DNA from: Methanomicrobiales archaeon
GTDB lineage: Archaea; Halobacteriota; Methanomicrobia; Methanomicrobiales; Methanospirillaceae
Direction: 5' to 3'
DNA length: 64,000 bases
NCBI GenBank assembly: GCA_025350045.1
Contig: JANXYM010000075.1
Coordinates: 1,039-65,038, forward strand
Part shown: positions 7,730 through 38,946 of the stretch, piece after piece
Numbering within the stretch: position 1 is the stretch's first letter
Layout: each line of letters starts with the position of its first letter
Program-made: the position numbers and the translations under genes
Notes under the pieces: generated by a model
The model's input: the letters and a program-made list of their open reading frames with translations, nothing else
What the model was told of the DNA's origin: nothing
Databases searched by the model: none

Positions 7730-7762
7730 CCTCGTCGTGACAATCAGTATTAGAGTATATTT

Positions 7763-11795: not shown

Positions 11796-11984
11796 TTCTA
11801 TTGCCTTTTTATCGTGCCCGGTTCATTTGAAATTTCCTTCATGTTATGGACATTATCGATCGTCCACCCCCCGGTTTTTCCGGTGTGTTTAAAGCATGCC
11901 CTTAAGTAATTTTACAGGATATATATAACATATACCTATGATCAGGCATTTCATCTATCGCATGATACATGGGGGTGCGTTTAC

Positions 11985-13217: not shown

Positions 13218-13279
13218 TTTTATCCCCACGCAAATTTATTTATCCTGCATAAAACCATGTTACTGTCTGGAGTGGTAAC

Positions 13280-13561: not shown

Positions 13562-13693
13562 TACCCTTTTTTGTGCCCTGCTGGTTATTTTAGTGTGGTT
13601 TATGGTTGAGTTCGTCTCCTTATATGCATCACTTTTTTTTGGTTTTTCTGCCGTGAAGATATGTTGAAATCCGATGAAAGCGGATGATCGTCC

Positions 13694-14629: not shown

Positions 14630-14658
14630 ATCTCTTAAAAAAACAGGACGGTGGATCC

Positions 14659-16125: not shown

Positions 16126-16163
16126 TCATTTCACCGGGTACTCACGTTTTTAATTATCCCGCT

Positions 16164-16769: not shown

Positions 16770-17278
16770 ACGCTATTGCAGCACTGCTTATCCAATACAA
16801 GGCAATTGAAACAGGTGACTTTACTCTGGCATCCGGTGCAAAAAGCACGTACTATATTGATGTGAAAACGGCAGTTACCCATCCAGATCTGCTCAATGCC
16901 ATTGCAAAACTCGTTGCCCAGTCTCATGCATTCGATGTTGTGGCAGGAGTAGCAGTCGGGGGAGTCCCTCTTGCGGTTGCAACGGCACTTGCTGCAAAAA
17001 AACCCTATGCGATCATCCGCGCAGCCGAGAAAAGCCATGGGAAGAAAGAGATGATCATAGGCAATGTCCGGAACAAGCGGGTCCTCCTTATTGAAGATGT
17101 TACTACATCGGGTGGATCCGCGCTGTACGGGATCGAAACCCTTCGCACTGCCGGGGCGCAGGCGGATCGTGTCGTTACGGTAGTGGACCGGGAGCAGGGT
17201 GCAGAAGCGCTGCTCAGCAAACAGGGCATAGAGTTCCTGCCTCTCGTCAGAGTGAGTGAACTGCTAAAACAGAAGTAA
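16763..17278 (+). CDS. pyrE: Orotate phosphoribosyltransferase
   Basis: '[17 protein letters not shown]', PRPP motif '[12 protein letters not shown]'. Confidence 0.96.
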
Positions 17279-17303
17279 TTTTTACGGCCAGCGTACATTA
17301 GAG

Positions 17304-23589: not shown

Positions 23590-26500
23590 TCACTTCAGAT
23601 AATGGCTGATTGGTTCAAGTGTCATCTTCTCGCGCTTGATCGCATCAATGGCAAGTGCAGCCGCACGCGCCGCCTGCAGGGTGGTAATATAGGGTATTGA
23701 GTAGTCCACTGCCGCACGCATGATCTGGTAATGATCCTGCCGTGACTGGCGGTCCTGCGGGGTGTTGATGATGAGGCGTATCTCCCCGTGCCGCATCATA
23801 TCCAGCACATTGGGTGATCCTTCCTGGATTTTTCTTACCAGATGCGCTTCTACTCCTGCTTCGTGAAGGTAATCGACAGTACCTTCTGTCCCATACAGGG
23901 TGAGACCGAGATCGCGCAGCTGCCGCGCGATCGGTATGGCCTCGTCTTTCTGCTCGATATTTACCGAAATGAATACATTGCCTTTCCGGGGGAGCTCATT
24001 GTCGGCGGATATGCAGGCTTTGTAAAATGCGAGACCGAAGTCATAGTCTATTCCCATCACTTCGCCTGTACTCTTCATTTCAGGACCGAGAACCGTGTCG
24101 ACTCCCGCGAGTTTGTTGAACGGGAGCAGTACTTCTTTGACTGCGACATGCTTGATCTCCCGTTCTTTATGGCCAAGATCCCGCAGCTTCCTGCCAACCA
24201 TGACTTTTGCTGCAATTTTTGCTACGGCAAGTCCGGTAGCCTTTGAGACAAATGGCACGGTGCGGCTTGCACGCGGGTTTGCCTCGAGAATGTAGACCAC
24301 GTTGTCTTTTACCGCAAGCTGGAGATTAACGAGCCCAATCACCCCAAGACCCAGGGCAATCTTCCGGGTGTAATCGCGCACCGTGTCGAGCACCGATGCC
24401 GGGAGAGACTGCGTAGGGATTACACAAGCTGAATCCCCGGAATGGATCCCGGCCTGCTCAATGTGCTCCATAATGCCTCCAATGAGCACATCTTCCCCAT
24501 CGCAGACAGCGTCAACATCGAGCTCGATGGCGTTCTGGAGGTAGGAATCGATGAGTACCGGGTGGGTCTTTGCAACCCGGACTGCCTCTTTGATATAGGT
24601 TTCAAACTCGACCAGGTTATGAGCGATCTCCATAGCCCGCCCCCCAAGAACGAACGAGGGACGGACCAGTACTGGAAAACCGATCTTCTCTGCGATCTCC
24701 CGGGCTTCTGCTTCGGAGTATGCCGAACCGTTTGCCGGGCTGGGGATCTTGAGCTTATCCAGAAGCACACTGAACCGGTCGCGATCCTCGGCAATATTCA
24801 TTGCATCCGGGGTAGTACCCAAAATTTTTGTCGAAAGACCAAGACGTTGGATCTCCTGTTCAATGGGCATGGCAAGGTTGACGGCATTCTGCCCCCCGAA
24901 CTGTACCATTACGCCATAATAATTGTCTTTTCTGAGGATGTTGACGACATCCTCGAGCTGCATCGGCTCAAAGAAGAGCCGGTCAGAAGTGTCAAAATCC
25001 GTAGAGACCGTCTCGGGATTATTGTTGACGATATGGACTTCCACCCCTTCTTCCCTGAGGGACTGGACTGCGTGCACGGTGCAATAATCGAACTCGATAC
25101 CCTGGCCGATCCGGATTGGTCCGGAACCAAGAATGAGTACTTTCTGTCGATCACTGGGAATGATCTCACATTCTCCCCCATGGGTTGAGTAAAAATACGG
25201 CGTGCTTGCCGGAAACTCGGCAGCGCAGGTGTCCACCATCTTGTATGATGGCAGACCTGAGATGGTATCTAACAGCTCCCCACTCTTACCGGTAATCTTC
25301 GCAATTTCTGCATTCGAAAATCCGAGATTTTTCGCAGCAAGGATATCTGCCGGATCGCTGTAGGTTGCGAGATGTTTTTCACAGTCGACAATATTTTTTA
25401 TCTTCTCCAAAAAGAACGGAATGATTGATGTGAGCTGTGCGATCTCTTGGAGGGTAAATCCCAGGCGGAAGGCATCGAAGAGGCAGTGGAATCGCTCATC
25501 GGTTGGGCGCGACAGTATCATGCGCACCTCGCTGGGGCTGGTATGGCTGAGCACATCGGTATCCAGCGACCGCTTCGCCTTCATGAACGCTTCTTCCAGC
25601 GTGCGCCCGATAGCCATCACTTCTCCCGTGCTCTTCATGGATGTGCCAAGTGTCCGGTCAGCTCCCTTGAACTTGTCAAATGGCCAGCGGGGTACTTTAA
25701 CGACAATATAATCGATCGTTGGCTCAAAAGAAGCCGGAGTGCAGCCGGTCACAGTGTTCATGATCTCGTCGAGCCGCAGACCGATGGCGATCTTTGCTGC
25801 CACCCGGGCAATCGGGTAGCCGGTTGCCTTTGATGCAAGGGCTGAGGAACGTGAGACACGCGGGTTTACTTCAATGACCCTGTAGTCGCCTTCCCAGAAC
25901 GCGAACTGGACATTACAGCCTCCCTGCACATCCAGCGCCCGGATGATATGGATTGCTGCGCTCCGCATCATCTGGAACTCGTCATCACGCAGGGTAAGGA
26001 TCGGAGCAACAACGACACTTTCACCGGTATGGATTCCCATGGGATCTACGTTTTCCATACCGCAGACGATAATGCAGGTATCTGCAGCATCACGCATAAC
26101 CTCGAACTCGATCTCTTTCCAGCCCATCACGCTCTCTTCAATGAGTACCTGGTGAATGCGGGAACGGGAGAGCCCGAGTTCAACGATCCGGATCATCTCT
26201 TCACGGGTGCGGGCAATGCCTCCGCCCGCTCCGCCAAGAGTATATGCCGGCCGGACTACTGCCGGAAGACCTATCGTCGTGATGGCATCCTCAATCTGGG
26301 AGAGGGAGTTGAGTACCATACTTTTTGGTACCGGCTCTCCGATGCTGATCATGAGATCGCGGAATTTCTGGCGATCCTCGCCTTTGTAGATCGCTTCAAG
26401 CGGGGTTCCGAGAATTTCCACACCCTTGAGTGCACCCATTTCTGCGAGTTCTACGGTCAGGTTCAGTCCCGTCTGTCCGCCCATTCCGGAAAGGATTCCG

Positions 26501-26751
26501 TCCGGCTTTTCTTTCTCGATAATCTTTGCAATAATATCTGCCCGGAGCGGCTCGATGTAGATCTCATCGGCCATATCCGGGTCGGTCATGATCGTTGCCG
26601 GGTTGGAGTTGACCAGCACTACCTTGACGCCCTCTTCCCGCAATGCCCGGCAAGCCTGGGATCCCGAGAAGTCGAACTCCGCTGCCTGGCCGATCTGGAT
26701 GGGTCCTGATCCGATCAGGAGCACCTTTTTGATATCTGAACGCTTGGGCAT
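23590..26751 (-). CDS. carB: Carbamoyl-phosphate synthase large subunit
   Basis: 'GSGPIQIGQAAEFDFSG', duplicated ATP-grasp, 'IEVNPRVSRSS', MGS domain. Confidence 0.99.
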   Translation of the reverse strand: MPKRSDIKKVLLIGSGPIQIGQAAEFDFSGSQACRALREEGVKVVLVNSNPATIMTDPDMADEIYIEPLRADIIAKIIEKEKPDGILSGMGGQTGLNLTVELAEMGALKGVEILGTPLEAIYKGEDRQKFRDLMISIGEPVPKSMVLNSLSQIEDAITTIGLPAVVRPAYTLGGAGGGIARTREEMIRIVELGLSRSRIHQVLIEESVMGWKEIEFEVMRDAADTCIIVCGMENVDPMGIHTGESVVVAPILTLRDDEFQMMRSAAIHIIRALDVQGGCNVQFAFWEGDYRVIEVNPRVSRSSALASKATGYPIARVAAKIAIGLRLDEIMNTVTGCTPASFEPTIDYIVVKVPRWPFDKFKGADRTLGTSMKSTGEVMAIGRTLEEAFMKAKRSLDTDVLSHTSPSEVRMILSRPTDERFHCLFDAFRLGFTLQEIAQLTSIIPFFLEKIKNIVDCEKHLATYSDPADILAAKNLGFSNAEIAKITGKSGELLDTISGLPSYKMVDTCAAEFPASTPYFYSTHGGECEIIPSDRQKVLILGSGPIRIGQGIEFDYCTVHAVQSLREEGVEVHIVNNNPETVSTDFDTSDRLFFEPMQLEDVVNILRKDNYYGVMVQFGGQNAVNLAMPIEQEIQRLGLSTKILGTTPDAMNIAEDRDRFSVLLDKLKIPSPANGSAYSEAEAREIAEKIGFPVLVRPSFVLGGRAMEIAHNLVEFETYIKEAVRVAKTHPVLIDSYLQNAIELDVDAVCDGEDVLIGGIMEHIEQAGIHSGDSACVIPTQSLPASVLDTVRDYTRKIALGLGVIGLVNLQLAVKDNVVYILEANPRASRTVPFVSKATGLAVAKIAAKVMVGRKLRDLGHKEREIKHVAVKEVLLPFNKLAGVDTVLGPEMKSTGEVMGIDYDFGLAFYKACISADNELPRKGNVFISVNIEQKDEAIPIARQLRDLGLTLYGTEGTVDYLHEAGVEAHLVRKIQEGSPNVLDMMRHGEIRLIINTPQDRQSRQDHYQIMRAAVDYSIPYITTLQAARAAALAIDAIKREKMTLEPISHYLK

Positions 26752-27815
26752 CAGGCAATCCTCCGGTACAGGGCGTCAAAGAAATGCGCTTCGGTATCCC
26801 GCGGTCCGCCATGAGCCTCCGGGTGGAACTGGACCGTGGTCAGTTTGAGATCTTTATTCTCGAATCCCTCGACAGTCCTATCGTTGACATTGGTATAGGT
26901 GACCCGGCACCCTTCGGGGAGCGAGTCTTCATCGACAGCAAACCCGTGGTTCTGGGTGGTAATAAAAATGCGGCCATCTTTAAATCTGACCGGCTGGTTT
27001 GCCCCGCGGTGACCGAACTTGAGCTTGTAGGTATCGCCACCTATGGCGAGTGCTGAGACCTGGTTGCCCATGCAGATCCCAAAGATGGGGAGTTGCCCGA
27101 GCAGTTCCCGGATACACCGGATGGCCTGCACAGCCTGCTTGGGGTCTCCGGGCCCGTTGCTCACAAAGAGGGCATCCGGTTTACAGGAAAGGATCTGTTC
27201 CGGGGTACTATCGTGGGGGAACACGTAAAGATCACCCCCGCGCTTTGCGAGACTGGTGATCATGTTCTTTTTGATGCCGAGATCAATGACGGCGATGCGT
27301 TTTCCTTTTCCTTCAACACGGTACGGCTGTTTGCAGGAGACTTCGGGTATGGGGGTGATGTCGGTGATCTGGGGGGTTTGTTTGGCAAGGTTTACCGCAT
27401 AGTCCCCGTCATCGCTTCCCACAACGAGTGCAGCCCGCATGGTTCCGTGGACGCGGGTTTTGATAGTGAGGGCGCGGGTGTCAACCCCGCTCATGCCGAG
27501 AAGGCGGTTCTCTTCAAAATAGGATCTGATGGACGGGCTGGCGGCGGGTTTTTCGCAGATCTCTTTTACAATGCATCCAAGAGCGCAGACTTTTTCATTC
27601 TGGAAATTTTGCGTATCTACGCCATAATTCCCGATTTGCGGGAAGGTGAACATGAGGATCTGGCCAAAATAGCTTGGATCCGTAAGGGATTCCATGTACC
27701 CTGTCATCTGCGTATTGAATACGAGCTCTCCCGAACACTCACCTTCAACACCAAATCCTTTCCCGATATAAAATTGCCCGTCTTCGAGACCCAGAACCGC
27801 CTTCATGATTTCCAT
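26751..27815 (-). CDS. carA: Carbamoyl-phosphate synthase small subunit
   Basis: 'GELVFNTQMTGY', 'SNGPGDP', 'FGICMG', 'QFHPE'. Confidence 0.98.
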   Translation of the reverse strand: MEIMKAVLGLEDGQFYIGKGFGVEGECSGELVFNTQMTGYMESLTDPSYFGQILMFTFPQIGNYGVDTQNFQNEKVCALGCIVKEICEKPAASPSIRSYFEENRLLGMSGVDTRALTIKTRVHGTMRAALVVGSDDGDYAVNLAKQTPQITDITPIPEVSCKQPYRVEGKGKRIAVIDLGIKKNMITSLAKRGGDLYVFPHDSTPEQILSCKPDALFVSNGPGDPKQAVQAIRCIRELLGQLPIFGICMGNQVSALAIGGDTYKLKFGHRGANQPVRFKDGRIFITTQNHGFAVDEDSLPEGCRVTYTNVNDRTVEGFENKDLKLTTVQFHPEAHGGPRDTEAHFFDALYRRIA

Positions 27816-28046: not shown

Positions 28047-28544
28047 ATGGGAACATTTGGAAGAAAGATTGTTGATACTGATGTTGCAGAGCTTGTCAAG
28101 CTCCTCAACAAGGCATTTTCCGATGAATGGCTCGCGTACTATCAGTACTGGATTGGTTCAAAAATCGTTCGAGGCCCCAACAAGGAGGCTGTTATAGCCG
28201 AACTTACCCTCCACGCTACAGAAGAACTGGGGCATGCAGTCCTGCTTACCACGCGGATTATCCAGCTCGGTGGAACCCCGGTTATCGACCCCCAGCAATG
28301 GTTCAAGCTTACCAATTGCGGGTACGATGCTCCTGAAGATCCTTTTATCGTCAAGGTCCTCGAACAGAACATCAAGGGCGAACAGTGTGCCATCAAGTCG
28401 TACAACAGCCTGCTCAAGAAGACCCGGGACAAGGATCCGGTTACGTACAACATCGTGCTGGGCATTCTCCAGATGGAAGTAGAGCATGAAGAAGATCTTC
28501 AGGCACTGCTTGAAGATGTCAATATCATTATGAAAAACAAATAA
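28047..28544 (+). CDS. Ferritin-like DPS-like (DPSL/thioferritin-type) protein
   Basis: 'DEWLAYYQYW', 'EELGHA', two Cys in 'LTNCGY' and 'EQCAI', 'EVEHEEDL'. Confidence 0.85.
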   Translation: MGTFGRKIVDTDVAELVKLLNKAFSDEWLAYYQYWIGSKIVRGPNKEAVIAELTLHATEELGHAVLLTTRIIQLGGTPVIDPQQWFKLTNCGYDAPEDPFIVKVLEQNIKGEQCAIKSYNSLLKKTRDKDPVTYNIVLGILQMEVEHEEDLQALLEDVNIIMKNK

Positions 28545-28757
28545 TTTTTCACTCTTTTTTAGGCGATATTGTGTGAGTTATCCATTAACCCGATGTGAGA
28601 TCATCTGTTTTATTTTCTTCAATCCGTCTTTTCCTGATATAAAATCCTTTTCTGTTTCAATGATTATGAATCAGATATCTGTCGATGTTTGGAATCCCCC
28701 ATCCTCACGCTTAAATACTACTCCTCGCAATTTCCCTGTAGTGAGCGGAGTATACTT

Positions 28758-29036
28758 ATGGGCATTGAACACGTAAACGGGAAAAAGAAAGGCAAGGTCA
28801 TGCTCTATGCGCTGAGCACCTGTGGCTGGTGCGCCAAGACCAAGGAACTCCTGCGGGAGCTGGGTATCGAATTCGATTATGCGTATGTCGACCTCCTTGA
28901 AGGAAACGAGCAGGACACCGCGATGGATAATGTTGAACGATTTAACCCGGCAGGATCGTTTCCTACCCTTGTTATCGATGACAGGAAGGGGATTGTCGGA
29001 TTCAAAGAGCAGGAAATACGGGAGGTATTCCGGTAA
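28758..29036 (+). CDS. Glutaredoxin-like protein (methanoredoxin-like)
   Basis: 'LSTCGWC', cis-Pro 'SFPTLVI'; start trimmed to ATG 28758. Confidence 0.88.
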   Translation: MGIEHVNGKKKGKVMLYALSTCGWCAKTKELLRELGIEFDYAYVDLLEGNEQDTAMDNVERFNPAGSFPTLVIDDRKGIVGFKEQEIREVFR

Positions 29037-29558
29037 ATGGCGCTTGTCGAGATAAGGCCCGGGGATGTGGTAGCAACCTACCAGATCCTGAACAAAGAGG
29101 CAGAAGGCGGGGGCTACCATCTGAATCCGGATGCGGAGTTCACAAAAAATCTTGTTGCCGGCCTCATGAAGAATGAGCAGCGCTACGGCTACCGTGCCTG
29201 CCCGTGCCGGCTTGCATCCGGAAAAAAAGAGCAGGATCTCGATATCATCTGTCCCTGCGATTATCGTGACCCGGATCTCGATGATTTCGGAGCCTGCTAT
29301 TGTGCCCTTTATGTCAGCGATGAGGTTGTGTCCGGTAAAACCGGTGTAGCCCCCGTCCCAGAACGCCGCCCGGCACGTTCTGCACGGGGTAAAACTGCTG
29401 TTGTACAAACGATCTCCCTGTCCTCGTCACCCATTGCGGCTCTTCCCTTTCCGGTATGGCGCTGTAAAGTATGCGGCTATCTCTGTGCGCGGGATCAACC
29501 ACCGGGGATCTGCCCGATCTGCAAGGTGACCAAAGAGCGGTTTGAACGATTCATATAA
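29037..29558 (+). CDS. Ferredoxin:disulfide (thioredoxin) reductase catalytic subunit with C-terminal rubredoxin-like domain
   Basis: FTR motifs 'CPCR', 'ICPC', 'CYC'; C-terminal 'WRCKVCGY...CPICK'. Confidence 0.9.
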
Positions 29559-29989: not shown

Positions 29990-30613
29990 TCAGGTAACCC
30001 GGGTCAGGGCACCGTTACCCAGATCGTAATAGAGCCCGTGTACCTCAACCCTCTTCTCATCAACGGCTTTTTTCAGCAGGGGATAGGTATGCAGGTGTTC
30101 GATCTGGAGCCTCACGTTCTCCTGTTCGATAAGCCGGTATCGCTCCTCCTTTTCGAGCACGGTTGTCGGGGGAGCGATCGTTTTGTCCACCCGCACTTTT
30201 GCATCCCGGGCATTGTTTAACCAGAGAGGTATGTACGAATCGGTGCTCTCCTTATCGAGTGCCCGTATTGCACCGCAGTTTGAATGCCCGCAGATGACCA
30301 CATCCTCGACCTTGAGGTGGACAACCGCGTATTCAAGCACCGTGGCAAAATTCCAGTCATGAATGGGCACGATATTGCCGATATTTCTCTGGATAAACAG
30401 TTCACCGGCTCTCGCCTGGGTGATATGCCCCGTCTGAAGTCGTGAGTCAGAACACCCAATCCAGAGCGTTGTCGGGTGCTGGCTGGAGGCCAGCTCGCGG
30501 TAGTAGTCGATATTCGGAGTGAAATCAGATTCCCTGAACTTATAATTTCCCAGCAATAATTTGTCGATCATTTTTGTAGAATTCTCCTTAATGTTCTTGG
30601 CAATCTCCCCCAT
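29990..30613 (-). CDS. Beta-class carbonic anhydrase
   Basis: Zn ligands in 'GCSDSR' and 'GHSNCG', 'RNIGNIV', 'VHGLYYDL'. Confidence 0.95.
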   Translation of the reverse strand: MGEIAKNIKENSTKMIDKLLLGNYKFRESDFTPNIDYYRELASSQHPTTLWIGCSDSRLQTGHITQARAGELFIQRNIGNIVPIHDWNFATVLEYAVVHLKVEDVVICGHSNCGAIRALDKESTDSYIPLWLNNARDAKVRVDKTIAPPTTVLEKEERYRLIEQENVRLQIEHLHTYPLLKKAVDEKRVEVHGLYYDLGNGALTRVT

Positions 30614-30973
30614 TACACACACCTCAGGAGAGTCTGCCGTAGTGTTCAGTCGTACGGGGAATAGTTAAATTTTGTGTTTTTACTCCTGTATGGGTGAAAC
30701 GGGAAAAAAAGGCCGAAATACCTCACCGCTCGTTGTTCATTCAATGAATACACAAGTTGTCATCTCCCGCGCATTGAACGCGATTTCTAATAATTAAAGC
30801 CGGATTTTCCTTAATGACTCGCGTTTTTGTCAAATGGCCGGCATATCTGTTCTTTTTGGGACGAGATATCTGACACTGTTTTAAAAAAACGGCCTTTTCC
30901 CGGGAAACCTACAGATACTTTATGGTGCTGAAGTAGCAACATAAATAAATTGACATCCCCGCGATGATCTAAA

Positions 30974-31676
30974 ATGGACGATTACCCTTATCATATCACT
31001 ACCCGAATAACTGGTTTTGTGGAGGTGCTGTATACCAATCATTTCTTCGTACGCTGAACCCGAACCGTTCAGCGAGGATCAGACGCTTCTTACCCTTTAT
31101 ACCCTTGCCGGGGAGGAGAGCGGAGGTTTTGTCACATTCCGCCCTCATTTTTTTATAGAGATAGGGAAAGCCTTGTTCTCCCAAGGTGCTGTTGCTTCAC
31201 CGGTTCAGGATATCGGTCCTGTGGATGTCCGGGAGCTTACCCCTGCAGAACTCGTCCGTGCCGAACGGGAACTCTGGACTCACTACCACCAGCAGACCGC
31301 TGATCGGGTGAATGATCGGCTCTTTGCTGCCTTTGCGGGCACCAAATTGATCGGTGTGGCACGGTGCTCACGCCATCCGGACGGCCTGGAGGTCGATGCG
31401 GTCTATGTTCTGGATGAGTACCGGCGCCGGGGATTTGCCCGTTCGGTAATGATCCTTCTCGTAGAGGAGTGCGGCAGGCAGGAGACTCTCTATATGCACT
31501 CGAAGACAGAACTGGTAGATTTCTACGGAAGCCTGGGTTTCTACCCCCTGCCGGAGTGCGAACTGCCCAAAACCATCCGGGACCGGTTCGGATTCTGTAT
31601 GGGAAACCTCAAAGGCATTGATGTCTGTCCCATGAAGCGGGATCCCACTGCTCATAACTCGGAACAGAATACTTAA
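30974..31676 (+). CDS. GNAT N-acetyltransferase, apparently frameshifted near 31049
   Basis: C-terminal GNAT 'YVLDEYRRRGFAR', 'LVDFYGSLGF'; a short upstream ORF 30974-31057 joins it if one base is removed. Confidence 0.75.
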
Positions 31677-31794: not shown

Positions 31795-33738
31795 ATGATT
31801 GCTGAACTCTTTATTCTTGCACTTCTGGTTCTTCTTGCCGGCACAATATTTCCTCTCATAGCAGCATCGCTGGACCGGAGATCCGTACGGACCATCTCGC
31901 TTTCCTGTACAATCGTTGCATCCATCCTGCTCGGGATTCTCTCTCTGGTGAACCTGCTGTCCGGTGATTCGGTTTCATTCACCCTGTACCAGCCCATCCC
32001 TGCATTCTCTCTTTCCTTTGTTATCGACCGTCTCGCTTCATTTTTCCTGCTCATCATCGCAGTCGTGTCGGCATGTGTTGCCCTCTACTTCACGGAATAT
32101 ATTGAGCACATGGACGGAGAGTCCCGCAGGAACCTGCTCTGCAGCTGCACCAGTCTCTTTATTCTTGCGATGGTGCTCGTTATCGCTTCGGCAAACACGC
32201 TTGCTTTTTTCCTGTTCTGGGAACTGATGGCTGCCAGTTCATTCCTGCTTGTGACCTACGAATATACCCATGATGAGACGAGAAAAGCCGGTACCTTCTA
32301 TTTCATCATGACCCAGCTCTCTTCTCTTTTTGTCCTGCTGGGAATCATCCTTCTCTATACCCAGACCGGATCATTTGCTATCTCCCCTGTGTATGGGGGA
32401 ATGACTTACCTCGCAATACTTGCATTCCTTGCTTTGTTTGCCGGCTTTTCCATCAAGGCAGGCATCATCCCGTTCCACAAGTGGCTGCCCTATGCCCACC
32501 CGGCCAGTCCCACACCAATATCAGCACTCATGTCCGGTGTGATGCTCAAGATCGCGGTTTATGGTCTGGTCCGTTTCCTGCTGGACGTATTCACGCCGGA
32601 TCTCTGGTGGGGGGTGCTGATCCTTGCTGCGGGAACTGCGTCTGCGGTTCTGGGCATCATCTATGCATTAAAAGAGCATGATGTCAAGGGGATGCTTGCC
32701 TATTCGAGTATTGAGAATATCGGTATCATTTTTACGGGGATAGGTCTATCAGTGATCTTTACTGCCAGTAATCTTCCCGGGCTCGCTACCCTCAGCCTGC
32801 TCGGGGCACTCTTCCATTCCCTGAATCATGCGATGTTCAAGAGCCTGCTCTTCCTCACGGCAGGTTCCGTTGTGTCTGCTACCCATACCCGGGATATCGA
32901 ACATATGGGAGGACTAGCCCACCGGATGCCGGTCACTTCCGCGCTCTTCTTTGTCGGCGCAGTATCGATAGCCGCATTGCCCCCCTTAAACGGGTTTGCC
33001 AGCGAGCTTTTAATCTTCATGTCGTTCTTCTCATCCGTTGCTTTGGTGGATCCGCTGTTCAAAGTGCTCCTCTTCATCTGCCTTGCCCTGTTTGCCCTTA
33101 CCAGTGCGCTCTCTTCAGCCTGCTTTGTCAAGGCGTTCGGTTCGATCTTCCTTGCCCTCCCGCGTTCTCCGGAGAGCGCCGTTGCCGAGGAAGTTCCCCG
33201 TGCAATGCTTATCGGCCCGGGTATCCTTGCGGCTGCCTGCATTCTCCTGGGTGTATGCGCACTCCAGATCTTTGCATTCGTGGGTTTTGCCGTTCCCCTG
33301 CCGGATATGCTGCTGATCAGCCTGTTGCTGGTCAGCATGGCCGTTCTCACCTATGCAGTGCTGTATTTCACCGCTTCCCGCGAAGTTCGGGTGAGCGAAA
33401 CCTGGGGATGCGGGACACTCTCCCAGCAGGCATCGGCAGAATACAGTGGTCACGGGTTCTCAGAGCCTCTTGACATCATCTTCTCTGCGATCTACCGAAC
33501 CCGGACAACCAGTGAACGGACGTTCCATGACCAGAAGAACTGCATCTTCAAGGAAGGTACGGGAGAGATACGCCTCCTCAAGGTATTTGAGGAATATCTC
33601 TACCGTCCCATTGCGCAGCAGTCCATGAGTATAACAAAATCGGTATCGCGCTTCCAGAACGGGTGCCTTGATACCTACCTTCTCTATGTCTTTGTCACGA
33701 TCATTGCCCTGATCATCTTCCTCGGGTGGTTTGCATGA
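31795..33738 (+). CDS. hyfB: Ehr/Hyf antiporter-like membrane subunit (HyfB/NuoL-type)
   Basis: 'FLFWELM', 'KAGIIPFHKWLP', 'LAYSSIENIG', 'LPPLNGF', long C-terminal extension. Confidence 0.9.
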   Translation: MIAELFILALLVLLAGTIFPLIAASLDRRSVRTISLSCTIVASILLGILSLVNLLSGDSVSFTLYQPIPAFSLSFVIDRLASFFLLIIAVVSACVALYFTEYIEHMDGESRRNLLCSCTSLFILAMVLVIASANTLAFFLFWELMAASSFLLVTYEYTHDETRKAGTFYFIMTQLSSLFVLLGIILLYTQTGSFAISPVYGGMTYLAILAFLALFAGFSIKAGIIPFHKWLPYAHPASPTPISALMSGVMLKIAVYGLVRFLLDVFTPDLWWGVLILAAGTASAVLGIIYALKEHDVKGMLAYSSIENIGIIFTGIGLSVIFTASNLPGLATLSLLGALFHSLNHAMFKSLLFLTAGSVVSATHTRDIEHMGGLAHRMPVTSALFFVGAVSIAALPPLNGFASELLIFMSFFSSVALVDPLFKVLLFICLALFALTSALSSACFVKAFGSIFLALPRSPESAVAEEVPRAMLIGPGILAAACILLGVCALQIFAFVGFAVPLPDMLLISLLLVSMAVLTYAVLYFTASREVRVSETWGCGTLSQQASAEYSGHGFSEPLDIIFSAIYRTRTTSERTFHDQKNCIFKEGTGEIRLLKVFEEYLYRPIAQQSMSITKSVSRFQNGCLDTYLLYVFVTIIALIIFLGWFA

Positions 33739-34676
33739 ACACAGATTTTGTCCTGTACCTTGCGATCAATACGCTCGTTGTCATTGCAGTCTCGCCCCTG
33801 TTTGTCAGCCTGATAAAAAAAGTCAAAGCCTGGACCCAGGGACGGCAGGGCCCCTCCGTTTTCCAGACCTACTTTACCCTGATAAAATTGTTGAAAAAAG
33901 AGGTCATATATTCCCCAAACTCCTCGCGTATCATGCGGGTTACCCCCTTAGTCACGATGGCAGCAATCCTTGTTGCCGCTCTCTTTGTCCCGCTGGTCTT
34001 TGTGCCTGAACCCGTCGGGGGTATGGGGAACATCATCCTCTTTATGTCCCTGCTTGCACTGGCACGGTTCTTTATGGCGCTTGCCGGCCTTGATGCCGGC
34101 AGTTCCTTTGGGGGTATGGGCAGTTCGCGGGAGATGAGCATCTCATCGATCATCGAACCCACGACCATTGTTGTCTTTGCTGCACTTGCGTTCGTCTTTA
34201 AGACCCTCAATATCTTTGACATGTTTGCCATCTCCGTATCCACCGGCTCCCCTTCCCTTTCAACCCTGATCCTGATCGGCATCTCGCTGTTCATCATCAT
34301 CATTGTGGAGACCTCGCGGATACCGGTTGATAACCCCGAGACGCATCTGGAACTGACCATGATTCACGAGGGAATGATTCTCGAACAATCCGGCAGGAAC
34401 TTAGCCCTCATGGAACTCTCGGCTGCCGTGAAGATGACCGCACTTATGGCACTCCTCCTCAACCTGATCGTCCCCTTCGGTATTACGACTTCCTTAACCC
34501 TGGCAGGGATTCTCATAGCGCTGATTTTATTGGTGGTAAAATGCTCGATCCTTACCGGGATTATCGGGATCTTTGAGTCATCCATGGCAAAGAAACGGTT
34601 CTTTCAGCTTCCCAGTCTCTTTGCCATGGCGTTCTTCTTCTCAACCCTGATAATCATCATTGAGGTGTTCTCATGA
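33735..34676 (+). CDS. hyfC: Ehr/Hyf membrane subunit (HyfC/NuoH-type)
   Basis: 'GRQGP', 'GGMGSSRE', 'PVDNPETHLELTMIHE'; ATGA overlap with hyfB. Confidence 0.9.
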   Translation: MNTDFVLYLAINTLVVIAVSPLFVSLIKKVKAWTQGRQGPSVFQTYFTLIKLLKKEVIYSPNSSRIMRVTPLVTMAAILVAALFVPLVFVPEPVGGMGNIILFMSLLALARFFMALAGLDAGSSFGGMGSSREMSISSIIEPTTIVVFAALAFVFKTLNIFDMFAISVSTGSPSLSTLILIGISLFIIIIVETSRIPVDNPETHLELTMIHEGMILEQSGRNLALMELSAAVKMTALMALLLNLIVPFGITTSLTLAGILIALILLVVKCSILTGIIGIFESSMAKKRFFQLPSLFAMAFFFSTLIIIIEVFS

Positions 34677-35365
34677 TCGACACCGCAATCGTTGTGGGGA
34701 TCGTCAGGATCCTTTTCGTCTGTATCATCATTACTGCTGCCTACATCATCTCCACGCGCAACCTGCTATCCGTGGTGTCCGTCTATGCCCTCCAGAGTCT
34801 CACCCTTGTCTGCATTGCCCTTGCCCTCTGGTCGCTTGAGGGCTCCATCGTTCTTCTGGAAATTGCCGTGGTCACATTCATCAGCAAGGTCCTCATCATC
34901 CCGTACTTCATCGCAACCATACAGGAAAAGATCAGGATCAAGCGGGATATCGAGTTTCATTATCTGAACCCCACCACATCGCTGCTCATCTCCATGGCAC
35001 TCATGCTGCTCATCTACATGGCGCTCGCAAGAATCATGGAGGGAACGCCGGCACGGGAGAGCCTCTTCTTCTTTGGTGCCGTGCTGGGGATCTCCCTCAT
35101 GCTGATGGGAATGATGGTGACGTTCAGCCGGAAGCGGGCGATCACCAAAGTACTGGGTTTCCTCTCCATGGAGAACGGGGTGCTCCTCTTTGGTATGTTT
35201 GTCACTGAGCTCCCGTTCATCATCGAGTTCCTGATCATCATCGATCTTATCATCCTCGTTATCCTGACCGCCATATTATCGGTTGGCATTGACTCGACCC
35301 TCGAGGATTACCACAAGCGTCTCCACCGCTTCCATCTCCTGGAAGAATCCGAGGAGGTTCCATGA
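34673..35365 (+). CDS. hyfE: Ehr/Hyf membrane subunit (HyfE)
   Basis: Seven hydrophobic segments, 'GFLSMENG'. Confidence 0.85.
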   Translation: MIDTAIVVGIVRILFVCIIITAAYIISTRNLLSVVSVYALQSLTLVCIALALWSLEGSIVLLEIAVVTFISKVLIIPYFIATIQEKIRIKRDIEFHYLNPTTSLLISMALMLLIYMALARIMEGTPARESLFFFGAVLGISLMLMGMMVTFSRKRAITKVLGFLSMENGVLLFGMFVTELPFIIEFLIIIDLIILVILTAILSVGIDSTLEDYHKRLHRFHLLEESEEVP

Positions 35366-36843
35366 TCCTGATTGCATTTGTGCTGGTATCCGTTGTCTCG
35401 CTCTTCATCATCGCGGCCGCCCGGAACCACCGGCAGATGAATACGGTCTGTGTCGCGCAGGCCCTGATCTTTGCTATCCTTGCTGCATGGATCGCTTTGT
35501 TCGAGCAGGTACCGGTTGTTTCGTTTCTGGTCGGCAGCCAGTACTTCTTTATCGATCATCTGGGCCTTTTTGAGGTCCTCATCGCTACGGTAATTTTTGC
35601 CTGTGCAGCCGTCTATGCCCGCGGGTATGTTGAAGGGCTCCTCGAGAGCGGGGAACTGGAGAAAGGCAGCCTCAGGCTCTTCTATGCGGCCTGGGCCCTG
35701 CTCCTTCTGGTCATCGTTCTTGCGTTTTTCTCGGACAATCTTGCCCTCTTCTGGATCTTTGCCGAGCTGACCACCATCATATCTGCCATGCTCATCGCCA
35801 TCCTGGCCGCACGGGAGAACATCGATGCAGCAATCAAGTATATTTTCATAGCCTCTATCTCCATGCTCTTTGCGTTTGTCGGGTTCATCTTCCTCTTCGA
35901 AGTATCACGGGTCCATCTTGGTACAGGCACCCTGAACTGGACGGTGCTCATGCAGCATGCCGCTGCATTTTCCCCGGGCATGGTGATCGCTTCATTTGTG
36001 CTTGTGTTTGTTGGTTTTGCTGCAAAGTCCGGGATCTTTCCGTTTCACACCTGGCTGCCGGAAGCCCATGCAAAAGCGCCCTCAGCAGTGAGTGCCATCC
36101 TTTCTGGTGTCCTGCTGAACTTGGGGATCTACGGGATCATCCGTATGTATGCAATTGTGCACCAGACAACCGCCATTGCAACCATTGCACCGATGCTTAC
36201 TGTGTTTGGGATCCTCACTATTGGCATTGCCGCCCTCTCCATGCTCCCCCAGAAAAACCTAAAAAAACTGGTGGCATTTTCCAGTGTGGAGAATATGGGG
36301 ATTATGCTGGTCGGGCTTGCCATCTCCACTCCCGTTGCCCTGTTCTGGGTGCTCTTCCATATCATGGCGCATGCATTCACCAAGGCATCACTTTTCTTCT
36401 CATCGGGAATCCTGCACCGGCAGTACCGGAGCCGGTTCTCAAGCGATGCTGCAGATGAGATTAAGGATGTATTCCGGCTCCAGCCACTGGCTGCATGGGG
36501 AATTATTCTTGGCGGGCTTGCGATCATCGGTATGCCCCCGTTTCCTCTCTTCTTCTCAGAATTCTTCATCATGCTCCAGCTGGGTGCAGTCTCCTTATGG
36601 GTGCTTGCAGTGATGCTCGTCCTGCTGTTCATTGCTGCTGTGGCCCTGGGATACTTTGTACTGACGACGTTTACGCAGGTGTCTGCACCTGATACCCCTT
36701 CAGATATTGAACCGTACCGGACTCCTGCCAGCATGAAGGCCCCCATCATCTTTTTGCTGGTGGTTCTCCTCGTTGTCGGGCTTGTTCTTCCCGCGTGGGG
36801 CATGGCGTTTCTCAACCAGATTGTAACGGAGCTGAAATTCTAA
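35362..36843 (+). CDS. hyfF: Ehr/Hyf antiporter-like membrane subunit (HyfF/NuoM-N-type)
   Basis: 'FAELTT', 'KSGIFPFHTWLPEAHAKAP', 'AFSSVENMG'. Confidence 0.9.
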   Translation: MILIAFVLVSVVSLFIIAAARNHRQMNTVCVAQALIFAILAAWIALFEQVPVVSFLVGSQYFFIDHLGLFEVLIATVIFACAAVYARGYVEGLLESGELEKGSLRLFYAAWALLLLVIVLAFFSDNLALFWIFAELTTIISAMLIAILAARENIDAAIKYIFIASISMLFAFVGFIFLFEVSRVHLGTGTLNWTVLMQHAAAFSPGMVIASFVLVFVGFAAKSGIFPFHTWLPEAHAKAPSAVSAILSGVLLNLGIYGIIRMYAIVHQTTAIATIAPMLTVFGILTIGIAALSMLPQKNLKKLVAFSSVENMGIMLVGLAISTPVALFWVLFHIMAHAFTKASLFFSSGILHRQYRSRFSSDAADEIKDVFRLQPLAAWGIILGGLAIIGMPPFPLFFSEFFIMLQLGAVSLWVLAVMLVLLFIAAVALGYFVLTTFTQVSAPDTPSDIEPYRTPASMKAPIIFLLVVLLVVGLVLPAWGMAFLNQIVTELKF

Positions 36844-38424
36844 ATGACTGCTGCAGATGATATCGGGATCCGGGCGGTACAGGAGTTCCTTGGCAAGGAT
36901 GCCCTGCCTGACCGGATCAGATGCGGATCCAACAATGAGCAGTACGTGCTCATCGAAGAGCCGGAGTTCGGGACGGCGGTATCGCACCTGGCGGCAAACA
37001 AGTTTGTCCTGATAAGCCTCTTCTGCTGCGAAGACTTCTCAGCAAAAGCTGCGCAAACGCTCTTTTACGTGTTCGAACGGAGGACCAGCATTCTGGTTCT
37101 TGTCAGGGATATCAACGGCCGGGCAACCACAATAGCCGGTATCTATCCCTCCGCATCATGGTTTGAACGAGAATGCCGTGACGGTTTTGGCATTGAGTTT
37201 GAGGGAGCTTTCGATACCCGGCGACTCTTCCTGCATGAGACCTACCCCGAAGGTTTCCACCCGCTCAAAAAATCGTTCCGGAATGCACCGATCGTAACCC
37301 GGGATGCCGTGAATCCTGCTGACGAATACCCGTTCCGGGAAGTGAAAGGGGAAGGGGTGTACCAGATTCCGGTTGGGCCGGTACATGCAGGGATCATCGA
37401 GCCCGGTCATTTCCGGTTCAGCGTGATCGGGGAGACGATCTTCAATCTCGAATGCCGGATGTTTTACAAGCACCGGGGCATCGAGAAGCTTGCCGAGGGC
37501 AAATCACCGGAGGACTGCATTGGTATTTCCCAGGAGGTGAGCGGTGATGAGTCAGTGGCAAATGCAACTGCGTTCTGCATGGCTGTCGAGCAAATCTCTC
37601 ATATGCCGGTTCCCGAACGGGCATGGTACCTGCGGACGATCCTCCTTGAGCTGGAACGCGTCTGTTCACACCTTGGCGATCAGGCGGGGATGCTTGTTGA
37701 TGTCGCGTTTCCCTTAGGTGCCAGCCAGTTTTCGGTGTTGCGCGAGGAATGTTTCCGTGAGAATGATCGGCTGACGGGATCGAGATTTCTGCGCGGGATG
37801 GTCTCTTTGGGCGGGATGAACCGTGACCTCTCCCGGGCACAGCTCGATGAGCTTGATGCTTTTGTTCACCAGCTGCGGAACCGGTACAAGATTGGGCTGA
37901 AGATTGTGCTTTCCACCGCATCTGTCATCGATCGATTCGCTACTACCGGTGTAATCCGCCCGGCACTGCTGCGCCCGCTCAACATTACCGGGCCCTCTGC
38001 ACGGGCATCGGGAGGGAAGGTCGATGTCCGTATCAATCACCCGTATGGCATCTACGATCGGTTCGCTCCCCATCTGCAGCGGCTCCGGGATGGGGATGTG
38101 CTCTCACGGTTTACGATCAAAGCCTCGGAGATCATGGACTCGCTCGATCTGATCGAACGGTTGATCGCGGCAATTCCCGAAGGAGAAATAAGGGTCGGTG
38201 CTCCGATCTGTGATGGGTACACACTTACCCTGGTTGAATCCGCCCGAGGCCAGAATCTCTGCTGGGTGTGGATCCGGGCCGGCGTCATTGAACGGTACAA
38301 GGTCAGGACCGCATCGTTTGGTAACTGGCTGGCAATCGAACACGCAGTCCAGGGAAACATTGTCCCGGATTTCCCGGTGATCAACAAGAGCATGAATCTT
38401 TCGTATGCGGGGACGGACCTGTGA
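36844..38424 (+). CDS. Ehr large subunit (HyfG/HycE-like NuoC+D fold, no NiFe ligands)
   Basis: 'GPVHAGIIEPGHFRF', 'HRGIEK'; L1 site reads 'EVSGDES' and L2 site 'DFPVINKSMNLSYAGTDL'. Confidence 0.9.
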   Translation: MTAADDIGIRAVQEFLGKDALPDRIRCGSNNEQYVLIEEPEFGTAVSHLAANKFVLISLFCCEDFSAKAAQTLFYVFERRTSILVLVRDINGRATTIAGIYPSASWFERECRDGFGIEFEGAFDTRRLFLHETYPEGFHPLKKSFRNAPIVTRDAVNPADEYPFREVKGEGVYQIPVGPVHAGIIEPGHFRFSVIGETIFNLECRMFYKHRGIEKLAEGKSPEDCIGISQEVSGDESVANATAFCMAVEQISHMPVPERAWYLRTILLELERVCSHLGDQAGMLVDVAFPLGASQFSVLREECFRENDRLTGSRFLRGMVSLGGMNRDLSRAQLDELDAFVHQLRNRYKIGLKIVLSTASVIDRFATTGVIRPALLRPLNITGPSARASGGKVDVRINHPYGIYDRFAPHLQRLRDGDVLSRFTIKASEIMDSLDLIERLIAAIPEGEIRVGAPICDGYTLTLVESARGQNLCWVWIRAGVIERYKVRTASFGNWLAIEHAVQGNIVPDFPVINKSMNLSYAGTDL

Positions 38425-38436
38425 GGTGAGAAGAGC

Positions 38437-38946
38437 ATGGTGAACGCATTAACCTGCCTGCTGAAAAAGAAAGTGACCGAAGATATCCCGGTGCAGGATG
38501 ACGAAGTAGAGGCTATCGGTCGCGAGATCAAAACTGCGATAGATGGAGTATTCAGCCGGAGCCTTGCGATCCGCGAACTGGATACCGGCAGCGATAATAC
38601 CACAGAGATCGAGATCAACAATCTCAACAACCCATTTTATGATGTGGAACGTTTTGGCATCACCTTTGTCGCTTCACCCCGCCATGCAGACGTCCTGCTG
38701 GTGACCGGTGCAGTGACGCACAACATGGCAATCGCCGCAAGAAAGACGTACGATGCAATGCCCTCTCCGAAATTTGTCGTGGCCGTTGGGGATGATGCCT
38801 GTACTGGCGGGATTTTTGCGGGAACGTATGCGGTGCTTGGTGGAGCGGACAAGATCTTCCCGGTTGACCTGAAGATACCCGGCAATCCCCCGACACCAGT
38901 GCAGATTCTTGCCGGGTTACTGGTATTGATGAAAAAGGTCCAATAA
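38437..38946 (+). CDS. Ehr small subunit (HyfI/NuoB-like) lacking Fe-S cysteines
   Basis: 'RELDTGS', 'FVASPRHADVLLVTG', 'PKFVVAVG', 'IPGNPP'. Confidence 0.88.
   Translation: MVNALTCLLKKKVTEDIPVQDDEVEAIGREIKTAIDGVFSRSLAIRELDTGSDNTTEIEINNLNNPFYDVERFGITFVASPRHADVLLVTGAVTHNMAIAARKTYDAMPSPKFVVAVGDDACTGGIFAGTYAVLGGADKIFPVDLKIPGNPPTPVQILAGLLVLMKKVQ

Follow-up and report, generated by a model that had tools for sequence, protein, structure and literature searches.

The ehrABCDLS operon at positions 31795-38946 (forward strand) of the window, the whole 64,000-nucleotide stretch of a Methanoregula genome that was analysed, is tightly packed and encodes a distinct subtype of the Ehr complex, lacking the NiFe ligands, the proximal (N2-type) [4Fe-4S] ligands and a ferredoxin-like subunit. 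Ehr, the energy-converting (Ech) hydrogenase-related complex, has been described in Methanospirillum hungatei (Mhun_1817-1822), where the operon type was named ehrABCDLS (PMC4704411; PMC2686161), and in Geobacter sulfurreducens (GSU0739-0745) (PMC2686161, PMC4704411, PMC7894505). The window's complex matches them in its six subunits and their order, and in having a large subunit without NiFe cysteines. By contrast, the small subunit of the typical described Ehr carries four cysteines for one [4Fe-4S] cluster, whereas that of the window subtype carries none. The operon type itself is already named; for the cysteine-less small subunit, we found no description in the literature, the contents of Coppi 2005 and Marreiros 2013 apart.

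Gene content and loss of metal ligands

The six genes are co-directional, with intergenic gaps of -13, -4, -4, 0 and +12 bases, and the ligand replacements of the small subunit fall within the last of them:

31795..33738, forward strand: ehrA, HyfB/NuoL/MrpA-like antiporter-type subunit, 647 aa (PF00361, PF00662; NF006418, 924 bits)
33726..34676, forward strand: ehrB, NuoH/HyfC/HycD-like subunit, 316 aa (PF00146)
34673..35365, forward strand: ehrC, HyfE-like membrane subunit, 230 aa (NF008556)
35362..36843, forward strand: ehrD, HyfF/NuoM-like antiporter-type subunit, 493 aa (PF00361; NF006427, 685 bits)
36844..38424, forward strand: ehrL, fused NuoC+NuoD/HyfG-like large subunit without NiFe ligands, 526 aa (PF00329 + PF00346)
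38437..38946, forward strand: ehrS, NuoB/HyfI-like small subunit without [4Fe-4S] ligands, 169 aa (PF01058)
38587..38604, forward strand: GSDNTT replacing GSCNGC, cluster ligands 1 and 2 (motif position; alignment to HycG)
38788..38799, forward strand: GDDA replacing GxCA, ligand 3 (motif position; alignment to HycG)
38878..38892, forward strand: PGNPP replacing PGCPP, ligand 4 (motif position; alignment to HycG)

Pfam and NCBIfam matches together with gene order bear out the Hyf/Ehr layout that an earlier note on this DNA had read from the sequence, and the identical arrangement of HyfB-, NuoH-, HyfE-, HyfF-, NuoCD- and NuoB-like genes recurs in 80 related loci. The NuoI/HyfH ferredoxin subunit, which the note had reported missing, is indeed absent: family profiles matched no Fer4/NuoI-type domain in any of the six proteins, and gene spacing leaves no room for a ferredoxin-like gene inside the operon. 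A solved-structure search with five subunits (EhrA, EhrB, EhrD, EhrL and EhrS) returned E. coli hydrogenase 4/formate hydrogenlyase (FHL) components (HyfBCEFGI; HycCDEG, 7z0s) as best matches for EhrA (HycC, 7z0s_C), EhrB (HycD, 7z0s_D), EhrL and EhrS, and Pyrococcus MbhH (6cfw_H) for EhrD. The window's complex and hydrogenase 4/FHL are alike in their fused NuoC-NuoD large subunit and subunit order, but the former is devoid of the NiFe site, the proximal cluster, the HyfA/HyfH/HycB/HycF ferredoxin subunits and a formate dehydrogenase partner in the operon. Compared with respiratory complex I and Fpo, the window's complex lacks the N2 ligands, NuoI and NuoA/J/K/N, and comprises only NuoL/M-, NuoH-, NuoCD- and NuoB-type subunits plus HyfE (Pfam, NCBIfam).

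All eight metal-binding cysteines are gone from EhrL and EhrS. Alignment of EhrL to HycE (7z0s_E) places EVSGDES (37534-37554) opposite RVCGICG and SMNLSYAGTD (38389-38418) opposite SLDPCYSCTD, so that the four NiFe cysteines are replaced by S233, E236, S520 and G523, in agreement with the note's statement that both NiFe CxxC motifs are missing. Likewise, alignment of EhrS to E. coli HycG (7z0s_G; reference motifs CNGC, GAC and PGCPP) supports the claimed loss of all four canonical cluster ligands, with D53, T56, D120 and N150 at the homologous positions. The Ech and Eha complexes of the same genome provide an internal control: their small subunits retain SCNGC, GxC and PGC, and their large subunits the N-terminal R[IV]CGIC (the C-terminal DPCIAC was seen in Eha only, the Ech locus sequence stopping short of that motif). 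Lacking the L1/L2 motifs, the proximal [4Fe-4S] ligands and a 2x[4Fe-4S] ferredoxin-like subunit, the complex does not qualify as a group 4 [NiFe] hydrogenase.

Conservation and spread of the cysteine-less subtype

In a phylogeny of 75 large subunits with Ech and Eha of the same genome as the root, the window EhrL falls inside the Ehr radiation, away from both (SH-aLRT 100). The pattern D-[T/A]-[D/E]-[N/D] occupies the ligand positions of the small subunit in all 120 nearest protein clusters, the same replacement being carried by relatives in Methanosarcina, Dehalococcoidales and Moduliflexus, and a second group (CPR bacteria and Syntrophus) is likewise without ligands. Overall, cysteine-less small subunits account for about 30 of the best 150 clusters at 50% identity and for 17 of 80 genome loci, the remaining 63 retaining the four cysteines. 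The loss is common to many archaea and bacteria rather than private to the window, and calling it unusual was an overstatement, since it is the rule in a whole widespread Ehr subtype. Many loci recovered from Bradyrhizobium, Mesorhizobium and Rhodopseudomonas, which we infer to be the Hyq cluster (hyqRBCEFGI) named in alphaproteobacterial diazotrophs (PMC4758237), resemble the window in their six-gene set and in a large subunit without NiFe cysteines but differ in retaining the four small-subunit cysteines and in occupying a distant tree branch.

The replacement residues are themselves strongly conserved. GSDN..EIE, GD[DE]A and GNPP are invariant in 26 EhrS orthologues from Methanomicrobiales, Methanosarcina, Dehalococcoidales and Moduliflexus, as are the individual residues D53, D/E120 and N150; the one remaining ligand position (T56) varies between T, A and P. 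In EhrL (25 orthologues), D235, E236, H181 and H189 are invariant, a beta1-beta2-type loop carries the conserved H181, E186 and H189, and the polar motifs SGD[SET]x and NLSY[SA]GxD are kept family-wide at the former NiFe site. Neither subunit has an invariant cysteine, and Cys122 of the EhrS DACTG motif, which had been put forward as a possible alternative ligand, is Val in one orthologue. EhrS is the best-conserved subunit (34% invariant).

All six genes are under purifying selection, the small subunit being the most constrained: across 11 Methanoregula orthologues, dN/dS is 0.156 for ehrA, 0.108 for ehrB, 0.135 for ehrC, 0.147 for ehrD, 0.177 for ehrL and 0.104 for ehrS, which disposes of the relaxed selection that the note had considered. 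Every one of the 15 Methanomicrobiales operons obtained entire has six unbroken frames of conserved length, and frame breaks occur only in two loci from metagenome-assembled genomes (MAGs; L004 and L005). No RNA runs with the operon sequence were found.

Membrane arm and genomic neighbourhood

EhrA, EhrB and EhrD retain the charged residues that mediate ion transfer in complex I, MBH and Mrp. In EhrA, E143 (TM5), K221 (TM7), K349 (TM11) and E404 (TM12) are invariant among 22 orthologues and K252 (TM8) is retained in 19 of them; in EhrB, the acidic loop residues E195, D202, E209, E215 and E220 are invariant among 23; and in EhrD, E135, K222 and K341 do not vary within the family, whereas the TM12 position is Glu400 in the window but is occupied by Lys in the other members of clade I. 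The earlier description of intact membrane subunits with antiporter Glu/Lys motifs is confirmed, with one correction at TM8 of EhrD: the expected Lys is Asn253, and the same holds for almost every Ehr relative, cysteine-bearing and cysteine-less alike. The membrane arm also bears changes characteristic of the cysteine-less forms and absent from cysteine-bearing Ehr. EhrC Glu179 (35207-35209), shared by both cysteine-less groups, occupies a position that is Gly in all 40 of the relatives whose small subunit bears cysteines; further changes are Ala to Phe173 and Phe to Tyr38 in EhrC, and Glu238 to Lys/Arg in EhrD.

No conserved redox partner adjoins the operon in clade I, to which the window belongs, or in clade II. 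Two other genes lie upstream in the window:

31017..31676, forward strand: GNAT acetyltransferase, 118 bases upstream of ehrA, candidate seventh gene in Methanomicrobiales (PF13673, PF00583)
29990..30622, reverse strand: beta-carbonic anhydrase, divergent from the GNAT-ehr unit (PF00484, E 1.5e-48)

The GNAT gene is possibly a seventh member of the ehr unit in Methanomicrobiales: a homologue lies directly 5' of ehrA on the same strand at L104, L105, L108 and L110-L117, from three families of the order, and is missing at L106, L107, L109 and L118-L121 and in Methanosarcina. The beta-carbonic anhydrase is a possible functional neighbour of Ehr. It adjoins Ehr operons in three distinct arrangements: divergent and upstream in Methanoregula, convergent and 25 bases past the end of ehrS in another Methanomicrobiales genus (L118, L119), and 113 bases downstream in a gammaproteobacterial locus (L047), whose small subunit is cysteine-bearing. 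By a rough estimate, chance would place about 0.1 such genes within 1.5 kb, an adjacency statistic that is post hoc, and the gene is missing beside most Ehr loci, including several in Methanoregula, those in Methanosarcina and all CPR loci. Genes for carbamoyl-phosphate synthase, which uses bicarbonate, also lie nearby in the window.

With MnhE taken as a marker of Mbh/Mrp, the Ehr operon and Mbh/Mrp are nearly complementary in Methanomicrobiales. Across 151 genomes of the order, MnhE occurs in 3 of the 21 that carry the operon and in 79 of the 130 that do not (Fisher p = 8e-5); for the family of the window, the corresponding figures are 0 of 13 and 14 of 17, and the window's genome has no PF01899 match anywhere. 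This complementarity is phylogenetically clustered and may reflect only one or two events, operon and MnhE coexist in three Methanomicrobiales genomes, and M. hungatei has both Ehr and Mbh/Mrp (PMC2686161). The window's genome already encodes two PF00999 Na+/H+ exchangers, so the need for an extra antiporter is not obvious. The subtype also occurs in CPR bacteria, organisms not known to have respiratory chains, where one Ehr locus lies directly 3' of F-type ATP synthase genes.

Candidate functions of the complex

The strong conservation and wide archaeal and bacterial occurrence of a form free of metal sites probably point to ion movement without electron transfer. The functions that the note had suggested (ion antiport, CO2/formate transport, sensing) are candidates, on which the near-complementarity with MnhE and the recurrent beta-carbonic anhydrase bear as indirect evidence. 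We tentatively favour, at somewhat less than even confidence and from sequence comparison, an ion translocator independent of redox chemistry, which would most likely act as a secondary cation/proton antiporter, with a task comparable to that of Mrp or the Mrp-like module of Mbh. Electron transfer would have been lost from such a complex; ions would pass through the antiporter-type EhrA and EhrD and the NuoH/HyfE-type channel of EhrB and EhrC; and the L-S cap, kept for the structure or gating of that channel, would have an acidic Asp/Asp(Glu)/Asn cluster, possibly cation-binding, at the former Fe-S position. Consistent with ion translocation are the retained charged residues, the membrane-arm changes specific to cysteine-less forms, the lack of a conserved neighbouring redox partner, the near-complementarity with MnhE and the occurrence in CPR bacteria; the two PF00999 exchangers and the clustering of the Mbh/Mrp pattern count against it. 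The complex shares with Mrp and the Mrp-like module of Mbh two antiporter-type subunits and the TM5 Glu, TM7 Lys and TM12 Glu/Lys pattern, and like them would need no redox input, but it has NuoH-, HyfE-, NuoCD- and NuoB-like subunits instead of MrpB/C/E/F/G-type ones. Mrp works without a comparable cap, which also weighs against an ion translocator, and the conservation of EhrS and of the EhrL H181/E186/H189 loop, higher than seems necessary for a simple plug, hints at an active or ligand site.

Such a site is central to a rather unlikely alternative, in which the L-S module would still couple membrane-arm ion flow to a ligand or a non-redox reaction consuming or releasing protons. Foremost among the possibilities is the interconversion or handling of CO2/bicarbonate, driven by or driving that flow, by the logic of DAB/Cup-type vectorial carbonic anhydrases. 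In DAB (DabAB), MpsAB and the cyanobacterial NDH-1 Cup modules, CO2 hydration on complex-I-type subunits is ion- or redox-driven; by analogy, the proposed Ehr would similarly employ a complex-I-type antiporter subunit in non-respiratory chemistry. The three beta-carbonic anhydrase arrangements against the low chance expectation, the nearby carbamoyl-phosphate synthase genes, the invariant coupling-loop residues of EhrL and EhrB, and a former NiFe site made of conserved polar motifs rather than decayed sequence all fit this proposal. The operon, however, encodes no DabA/CupA-like protein and no zinc-type His/Cys triads; the neighbouring anhydrase is a separate, ordinary beta-class enzyme absent at most loci, its gammaproteobacterial instance accompanies a cysteine-bearing small subunit, and the statistic was computed after the fact.

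Continued redox activity, through Asp/Asn/Thr ligands, another cofactor or a partner encoded elsewhere (formate dehydrogenase or ferredoxin), appears improbable. Published annotations still treat the M. hungatei Ehr as a ferredoxin-reducing hydrogenase (PMC4704411, PMC11087674), Geobacter Ehr subunits are up on formate (PMC7894505), FDH-Ehr complexes have been proposed (PMC6349859), and some cysteine-less small subunits elsewhere bear an N-terminal NuoI-like domain with cysteine motifs. Yet no ferredoxin domain was found in the window EhrS, no conserved redox gene adjoins the operon, and neither L nor S has the invariant cysteine that could stand in for ligand positions fixed as Asp, Asp/Glu and Asn, with a variable fourth. 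We know of no [4Fe-4S] cluster without cysteine ligands and Methanomicrobiales are not known to possess a quinone or methanophenazine that the complex could reduce. That the genes are a decaying or non-functional hydrogenase remnant is very improbable: every metal ligand is lost, as that would predict, but the intact frames, the dN/dS of 0.10-0.18 and replacement residues invariant in archaeal and bacterial members already contradict it.

Beyond the favoured ion translocator, a broader and more speculative possibility, which we regard as unlikely, is that these complexes form an old and widely distributed branch of the hydrogenase/complex I lineage that discarded all its redox centres and kept the entire coupling apparatus (NuoD-type loop, NuoB fold, NuoH loop and antiporter subunits). 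Ion flow would then be linked to an event without redox chemistry where the active site used to be, which could be the binding of a cation by Asp/Asp/Asn or a CO2/bicarbonate reaction linked to protons. If true, the complex would be the first 'electron-free' energy converter of the complex-I type in nature.

Loss of metal ligands in the ehrABCDLS operon

Six genes of the window overlap or abut one another on the + strand (31795-38946; gaps of -13, -4, -4, 0 and +12 bases), and their layout is that of ehrABCDLS, the operon of the energy-converting hydrogenase-related complex (Ehr). The host genome spans 2.53 Mb and is 96% complete, and its nearest protein relatives are named Methanoregula.

Genes of the window's Ehr operon, in order, with the family matches that assign them
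ehrA, + strand: HyfB/NuoL-like antiporter-type subunit, 647 aa (NF006418, 924 bits)
ehrB, + strand: NuoH/HyfC-like subunit, 316 aa (Pfam/NCBIfam)
ehrC, 34673-35365, + strand: HyfE-like subunit, 230 aa (Pfam/NCBIfam)
ehrD, 35362-36843, + strand: HyfF/NuoM-like antiporter-type subunit, 493 aa (NF006427, 685 bits)
ehrL, + strand: fused NuoC+NuoD/HyfG-like large subunit, 526 aa (Pfam/NCBIfam)
ehrS, + strand: NuoB/HyfI-like small subunit, 169 aa (Pfam/NCBIfam)

The operon family and its loss of NiFe ligands are already known. Its counterpart in Methanospirillum hungatei, the homologous cluster Mhun_1817-1822, entered the literature in 2009 as a putative membrane hydrogenase with no NiFe cysteines in its large subunit (PMC2686161), and received the name ehrABCDLS in 2016, with ferredoxin reduction assumed (PMC4704411). 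Full-text searches of the accessible literature, to which neither Coppi 2005 nor Marreiros 2013 (the papers that founded the family) belongs, turned up no mention of Ehr small subunits without cysteines and no statement of strong constraint on a cysteine-less Ehr subtype; because these two papers lie outside it, there is a real chance that such a small subunit has been mentioned before.

An earlier note had claimed that both hydrophilic subunits have lost their metal ligands and that no ferredoxin subunit is encoded, and each of these points is borne out. The EhrS motifs that it quoted (GSDNTT, GDDA and PGNPP) lie where it had placed them, and in an alignment to HycG of the Escherichia coli formate hydrogenlyase (7z0s_G) all four [4Fe-4S] cysteine positions are replaced, by Asp53, Thr56, Asp120 and Asn150. 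Alignment of EhrL to HycE (7z0s_E) likewise confirms the loss of the NiFe cysteines, with RVCGIC reading EVSGDE and DPCYSC reading NLSYAG, while none of the six proteins contains a ferredoxin-type domain and the operon spacing leaves no room for an extra gene. In the small subunits of Ech and Eha from the same genome the cluster cysteines are retained, and the N-terminal NiFe motif is present in the large subunit of each (the C-terminal motif is present in Eha; the Ech sequence examined stopped short of it), so the ligand loss is specific to the Ehr complex. Chance, sequencing error and odd coding are ruled out by the ordinary replacement codons of ehrS (GAT, ACA, GAT and AAT), by two sediment metagenome runs that contain 100% of the sequence words, and by the pattern D-[T/A]-[D/E]-[N/D], which stands at the four ligand positions in all 120 of the closest 90%-identity clusters (79-92% identical). 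The sequencing-run search found no RNA runs containing the sequence. As read from its genes, this Ehr complex lacks the canonical sites of the NiFe centre, the proximal Fe-S cluster and ferredoxin-type clusters alike.

Distribution of the cysteine-less form and selection on it

About 30 clusters lacking all or most ligands occur among the best 150 50%-identity representatives. A locus scan with a single genome for each species yielded 80 loci, nearly all of them Ehr, in which the NiFe motifs of the large subunit have given way to SGD[S/E/T]x and S[F/L]NLSY[S/A]GxD; the four small-subunit cysteines are intact in 63 of the 80, and at least three are lost in the other 17. The window's tight group, clade I (SH-aLRT 100), encompasses Methanoregulaceae, Methanosarcina, other Methanosarcinales, a Dehalococcoidales MAG and a Moduliflexus MAG, with D-x-D-N common to all members. 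A second cysteine-less group, clade II, has the gene order S-A-B-C-D-L and the ligand pattern [T/D]-[C/A/E]-[D/G]-[D/E], and includes CPR bacteria (Moranbacteria, Kaiserbacteria, Levybacteria and Magasanikbacteria), a Syntrophus and a Thermoleophilia MAG. The two groups stand apart, each beside cysteine-bearing relatives, both in the large-subunit tree and in a concatenated A+B+C+D+L tree (2227 columns); a single cysteine-less clade is not rejected by the AU test (p = 0.26), and the ligands may have been lost either once, in an ancient event, or twice independently. Within Methanomicrobiales the operon is patchy (21 of 151 genomes), occurring in 11 of the 13 genomes of the window's genus and in scattered members of three other families.

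Two other arrangements were seen among the relatives. A Chloroflexota MAG locus (L072, 6752-10432) encodes a large subunit with all four NiFe cysteines (ERICGAC ... ELCYAC) and a small subunit with E-C-E-D at the four cluster positions, and thus pairs a true hydrogenase large subunit with a small subunit missing three of four ligands. In other lineages, six cysteine-less small subunits (P0139, P0178, P0199, P0213, P0241 and P0255) bear an N-terminal NuoI-like extension with one CxxCxxC motif and a CP remnant, so that one ferredoxin-type cluster may persist there despite the lost proximal-cluster ligands.

Relaxed selection, raised in the earlier note as the contrary case, is excluded by dN/dS values of 0.10-0.18 and by the conservation of the replacements themselves. 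Among 11 Methanoregula orthologues, median dN/dS (Nei-Gojobori) is 0.156 for ehrA, 0.108 for ehrB, 0.135 for ehrC, 0.147 for ehrD, 0.177 for ehrL and 0.104 for ehrS, values that are rough because dS is near saturation (about 1.2-1.5), yet clearly far under 1. In the 15 Methanomicrobiales operons examined whole (five others are truncated where a contig or the examined range ends) all frames are intact and lengths are conserved. Broken frames occur in two MAG loci (L004 and L005; Methanomicrobiales and Methanoregulaceae) in which ehrA, ehrD and ehrL are split into several frames, for which our guess is assembly indel errors; the other orthologues are intact. EhrS is the most conserved protein, 34% of its positions being invariant across 26 archaeal and bacterial orthologues, with invariant stretches GSDN..EIE, GD[D/E]A and GNPP and T, A or P at the second ligand position; the NuoD-type loop of EhrL (H181, E186 and H189) is also very highly conserved. 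These patterns show that the window's Ehr complex is kept by purifying selection and represents a widespread cysteine-less subtype.

Membrane arm and gene neighbourhood

The note's further claim, that the Glu/Lys motifs of the antiporter-type subunits are intact, holds for EhrA and EhrD in general and fails at one site, the HyfF-like TM8 lysine of EhrD, which is Asn253 in nearly all Ehr relatives with or without cysteines. In EhrA, E143 (TM5), K221 (TM7), K349 (TM11) and E404 (TM12) are invariant and K252 (TM8) is found in 19 of 22 orthologues; EhrD retains E135, K222 and K341; and EhrB retains the acidic loop E195, D202, E209, E215 and E220, which aligns with HycD. Several changes set both cysteine-less groups apart from cysteine-bearing Ehr: EhrC Glu179 (35207-35209), which is Gly in all 40 cysteine-bearing forms, Ala to Phe173 and Phe to Tyr38 in EhrC, and Glu238 to Lys/Arg in EhrD. 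A Met to Lys293 change in EhrA is seen in the window's group only. The common changes may be either derived characters of one old subtype or convergence, and the ion path appears to have changed along with cluster loss, a link that we infer.

Genes beside the operon and its relatives
29990-30622, - strand: beta-carbonic anhydrase of the window, divergent and upstream of ehr, as in some Methanoregula
5693-6271 in locus L118 and 13460-14038 in locus L119 (another genus): beta-carbonic anhydrase, convergent, 25 bases downstream
10608-11237 in locus L047 (gammaproteobacterial, cysteine-bearing small subunit): beta-carbonic anhydrase, 113 bases downstream
31017-31676, + strand: GNAT acetyltransferase of the window, directly upstream of ehrA

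Beta-class carbonic anhydrase (PF00484) thus adjoins Ehr operons in three arrangements and two domains of life, and most Ehr loci have no such neighbour. Near the window's copy lie carbamoyl-phosphate synthase genes (23590-27815, - strand) and, between them and the carbonic anhydrase, a block syntenic across Methanoregula (28047-29558) with a ferritin/rubrerythrin-like gene and a ferredoxin-thioredoxin-reductase-beta domain fused to a rubredoxin-like domain. The GNAT gene immediately precedes ehrA, in the same orientation, in loci L104, L105, L108 and L110-L117, from three Methanomicrobiales families, so it may travel with the operon in this order as a lineage-specific seventh gene; its open frame overlaps that of ehrA in some loci, while some Methanoregula, family f4 and Methanosarcina do not have it. 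The downstream alpha/beta hydrolase recurs solely within Methanoregulaceae, and it and the flippase-like genes were rejected as partners, having no counterpart outside that family. In one clade II locus from an uncultured bacterium (L076), the Ehr operon (9944-17760) comes immediately after the genes for alpha, gamma, beta and epsilon of the F-type ATP synthase (3458-9768) and runs in their direction; a PD-(D/E)XK nuclease gene separates beta from epsilon.

The operon and MnhE (PF01899) have nearly complementary distributions over 151 Methanomicrobiales genomes. MnhE is a marker of Mbh/Mrp and in the one case examined lay ~4 kb from a NuoB-like gene, matching the expectation for an Mbh operon. 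MnhE occurs in 3 of 21 operon-bearing versus 79 of 130 operon-free genomes (Fisher p = 8e-5) and, in the window's family, in 0 of 13 with versus 14 of 17 without the operon, a complementarity that is phylogenetically clustered and so may rest on few events. Methanoregula lacks the marker; in M. hungatei, Ehr and Mbh/Mrp are both present (PMC2686161).

Candidate functions and their implications

We infer an Ehr subtype that would operate without electron transfer. The most economical mechanism would be ion translocation independent of redox chemistry: the complex would act as a secondary cation/proton antiporter, taking over the task of Mbh's Mrp-like module in lineages without that module. Assembly or gating would be what the L-S cap is kept for, with a cation perhaps bound by the acidic Asp/Asp(Glu)/Asn triad. 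We hold this reading tentatively, a little short of an even chance; the window's genome also encodes two ordinary PF00999 Na+/H+ exchangers. Alternatively, a non-redox proton-linked event at the old active site, such as CO2/bicarbonate chemistry or ligand binding, could be coupled to ion flow. The very high conservation of EhrS and of the NuoD-type loop and the recurrence of carbonic anhydrase beside Ehr speak for such coupling, which we nevertheless consider rather unlikely.

Both of these readings are more probable than cryptic redox activity or decay of hydrogenase genes. The earlier note had allowed for a cluster bound through alternative ligands (Asp or the remaining Cys of 'DACTG'), and alignments of EhrL and EhrS contain no invariant Cys in either subunit, with Cys122 replaced by Val in one orthologue; alternative cysteine ligands are ruled out on these grounds, which make a cluster bound in that way very unlikely. 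Beside the operons of both clades the search found no conserved partner gene, and in particular no conserved redox partner, ferredoxin or formate dehydrogenase, and cryptic redox activity as a whole seems improbable to us. Decay is barely credible, pseudogenisation being ruled out by dN/dS and the intact frames. The probability left over falls to other functions, sensing for example.

For complex I and its hydrogenase relatives, a central problem is how chemistry in the peripheral arm can power ion transfer at a distance of tens of angstroms, and a redox-free member under clear selection would set the ion-translocating and coupling machinery apart from electron transfer. Since the genetically tractable Methanosarcina carries Ehr relatives (PMC2686161; also seen in our locus scan), redox-free coupling is testable. 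Ehr operons of Methanospirillum and other methanogens have been assigned to the ferredoxin-dependent hydrogenases (PMC4704411, PMC11087674), and recent papers continue to place the complex of M. hungatei with hydrogenases (PMC11087674, PMC10787695). Where metabolic models, whether of hydrogenotrophic methanogens or of CPR bacteria, build on that annotation, they would be wrong. If the antiporter reading is true, Ehr may substitute for the Mbh/Mrp ion-exchange module in Methanoregula.
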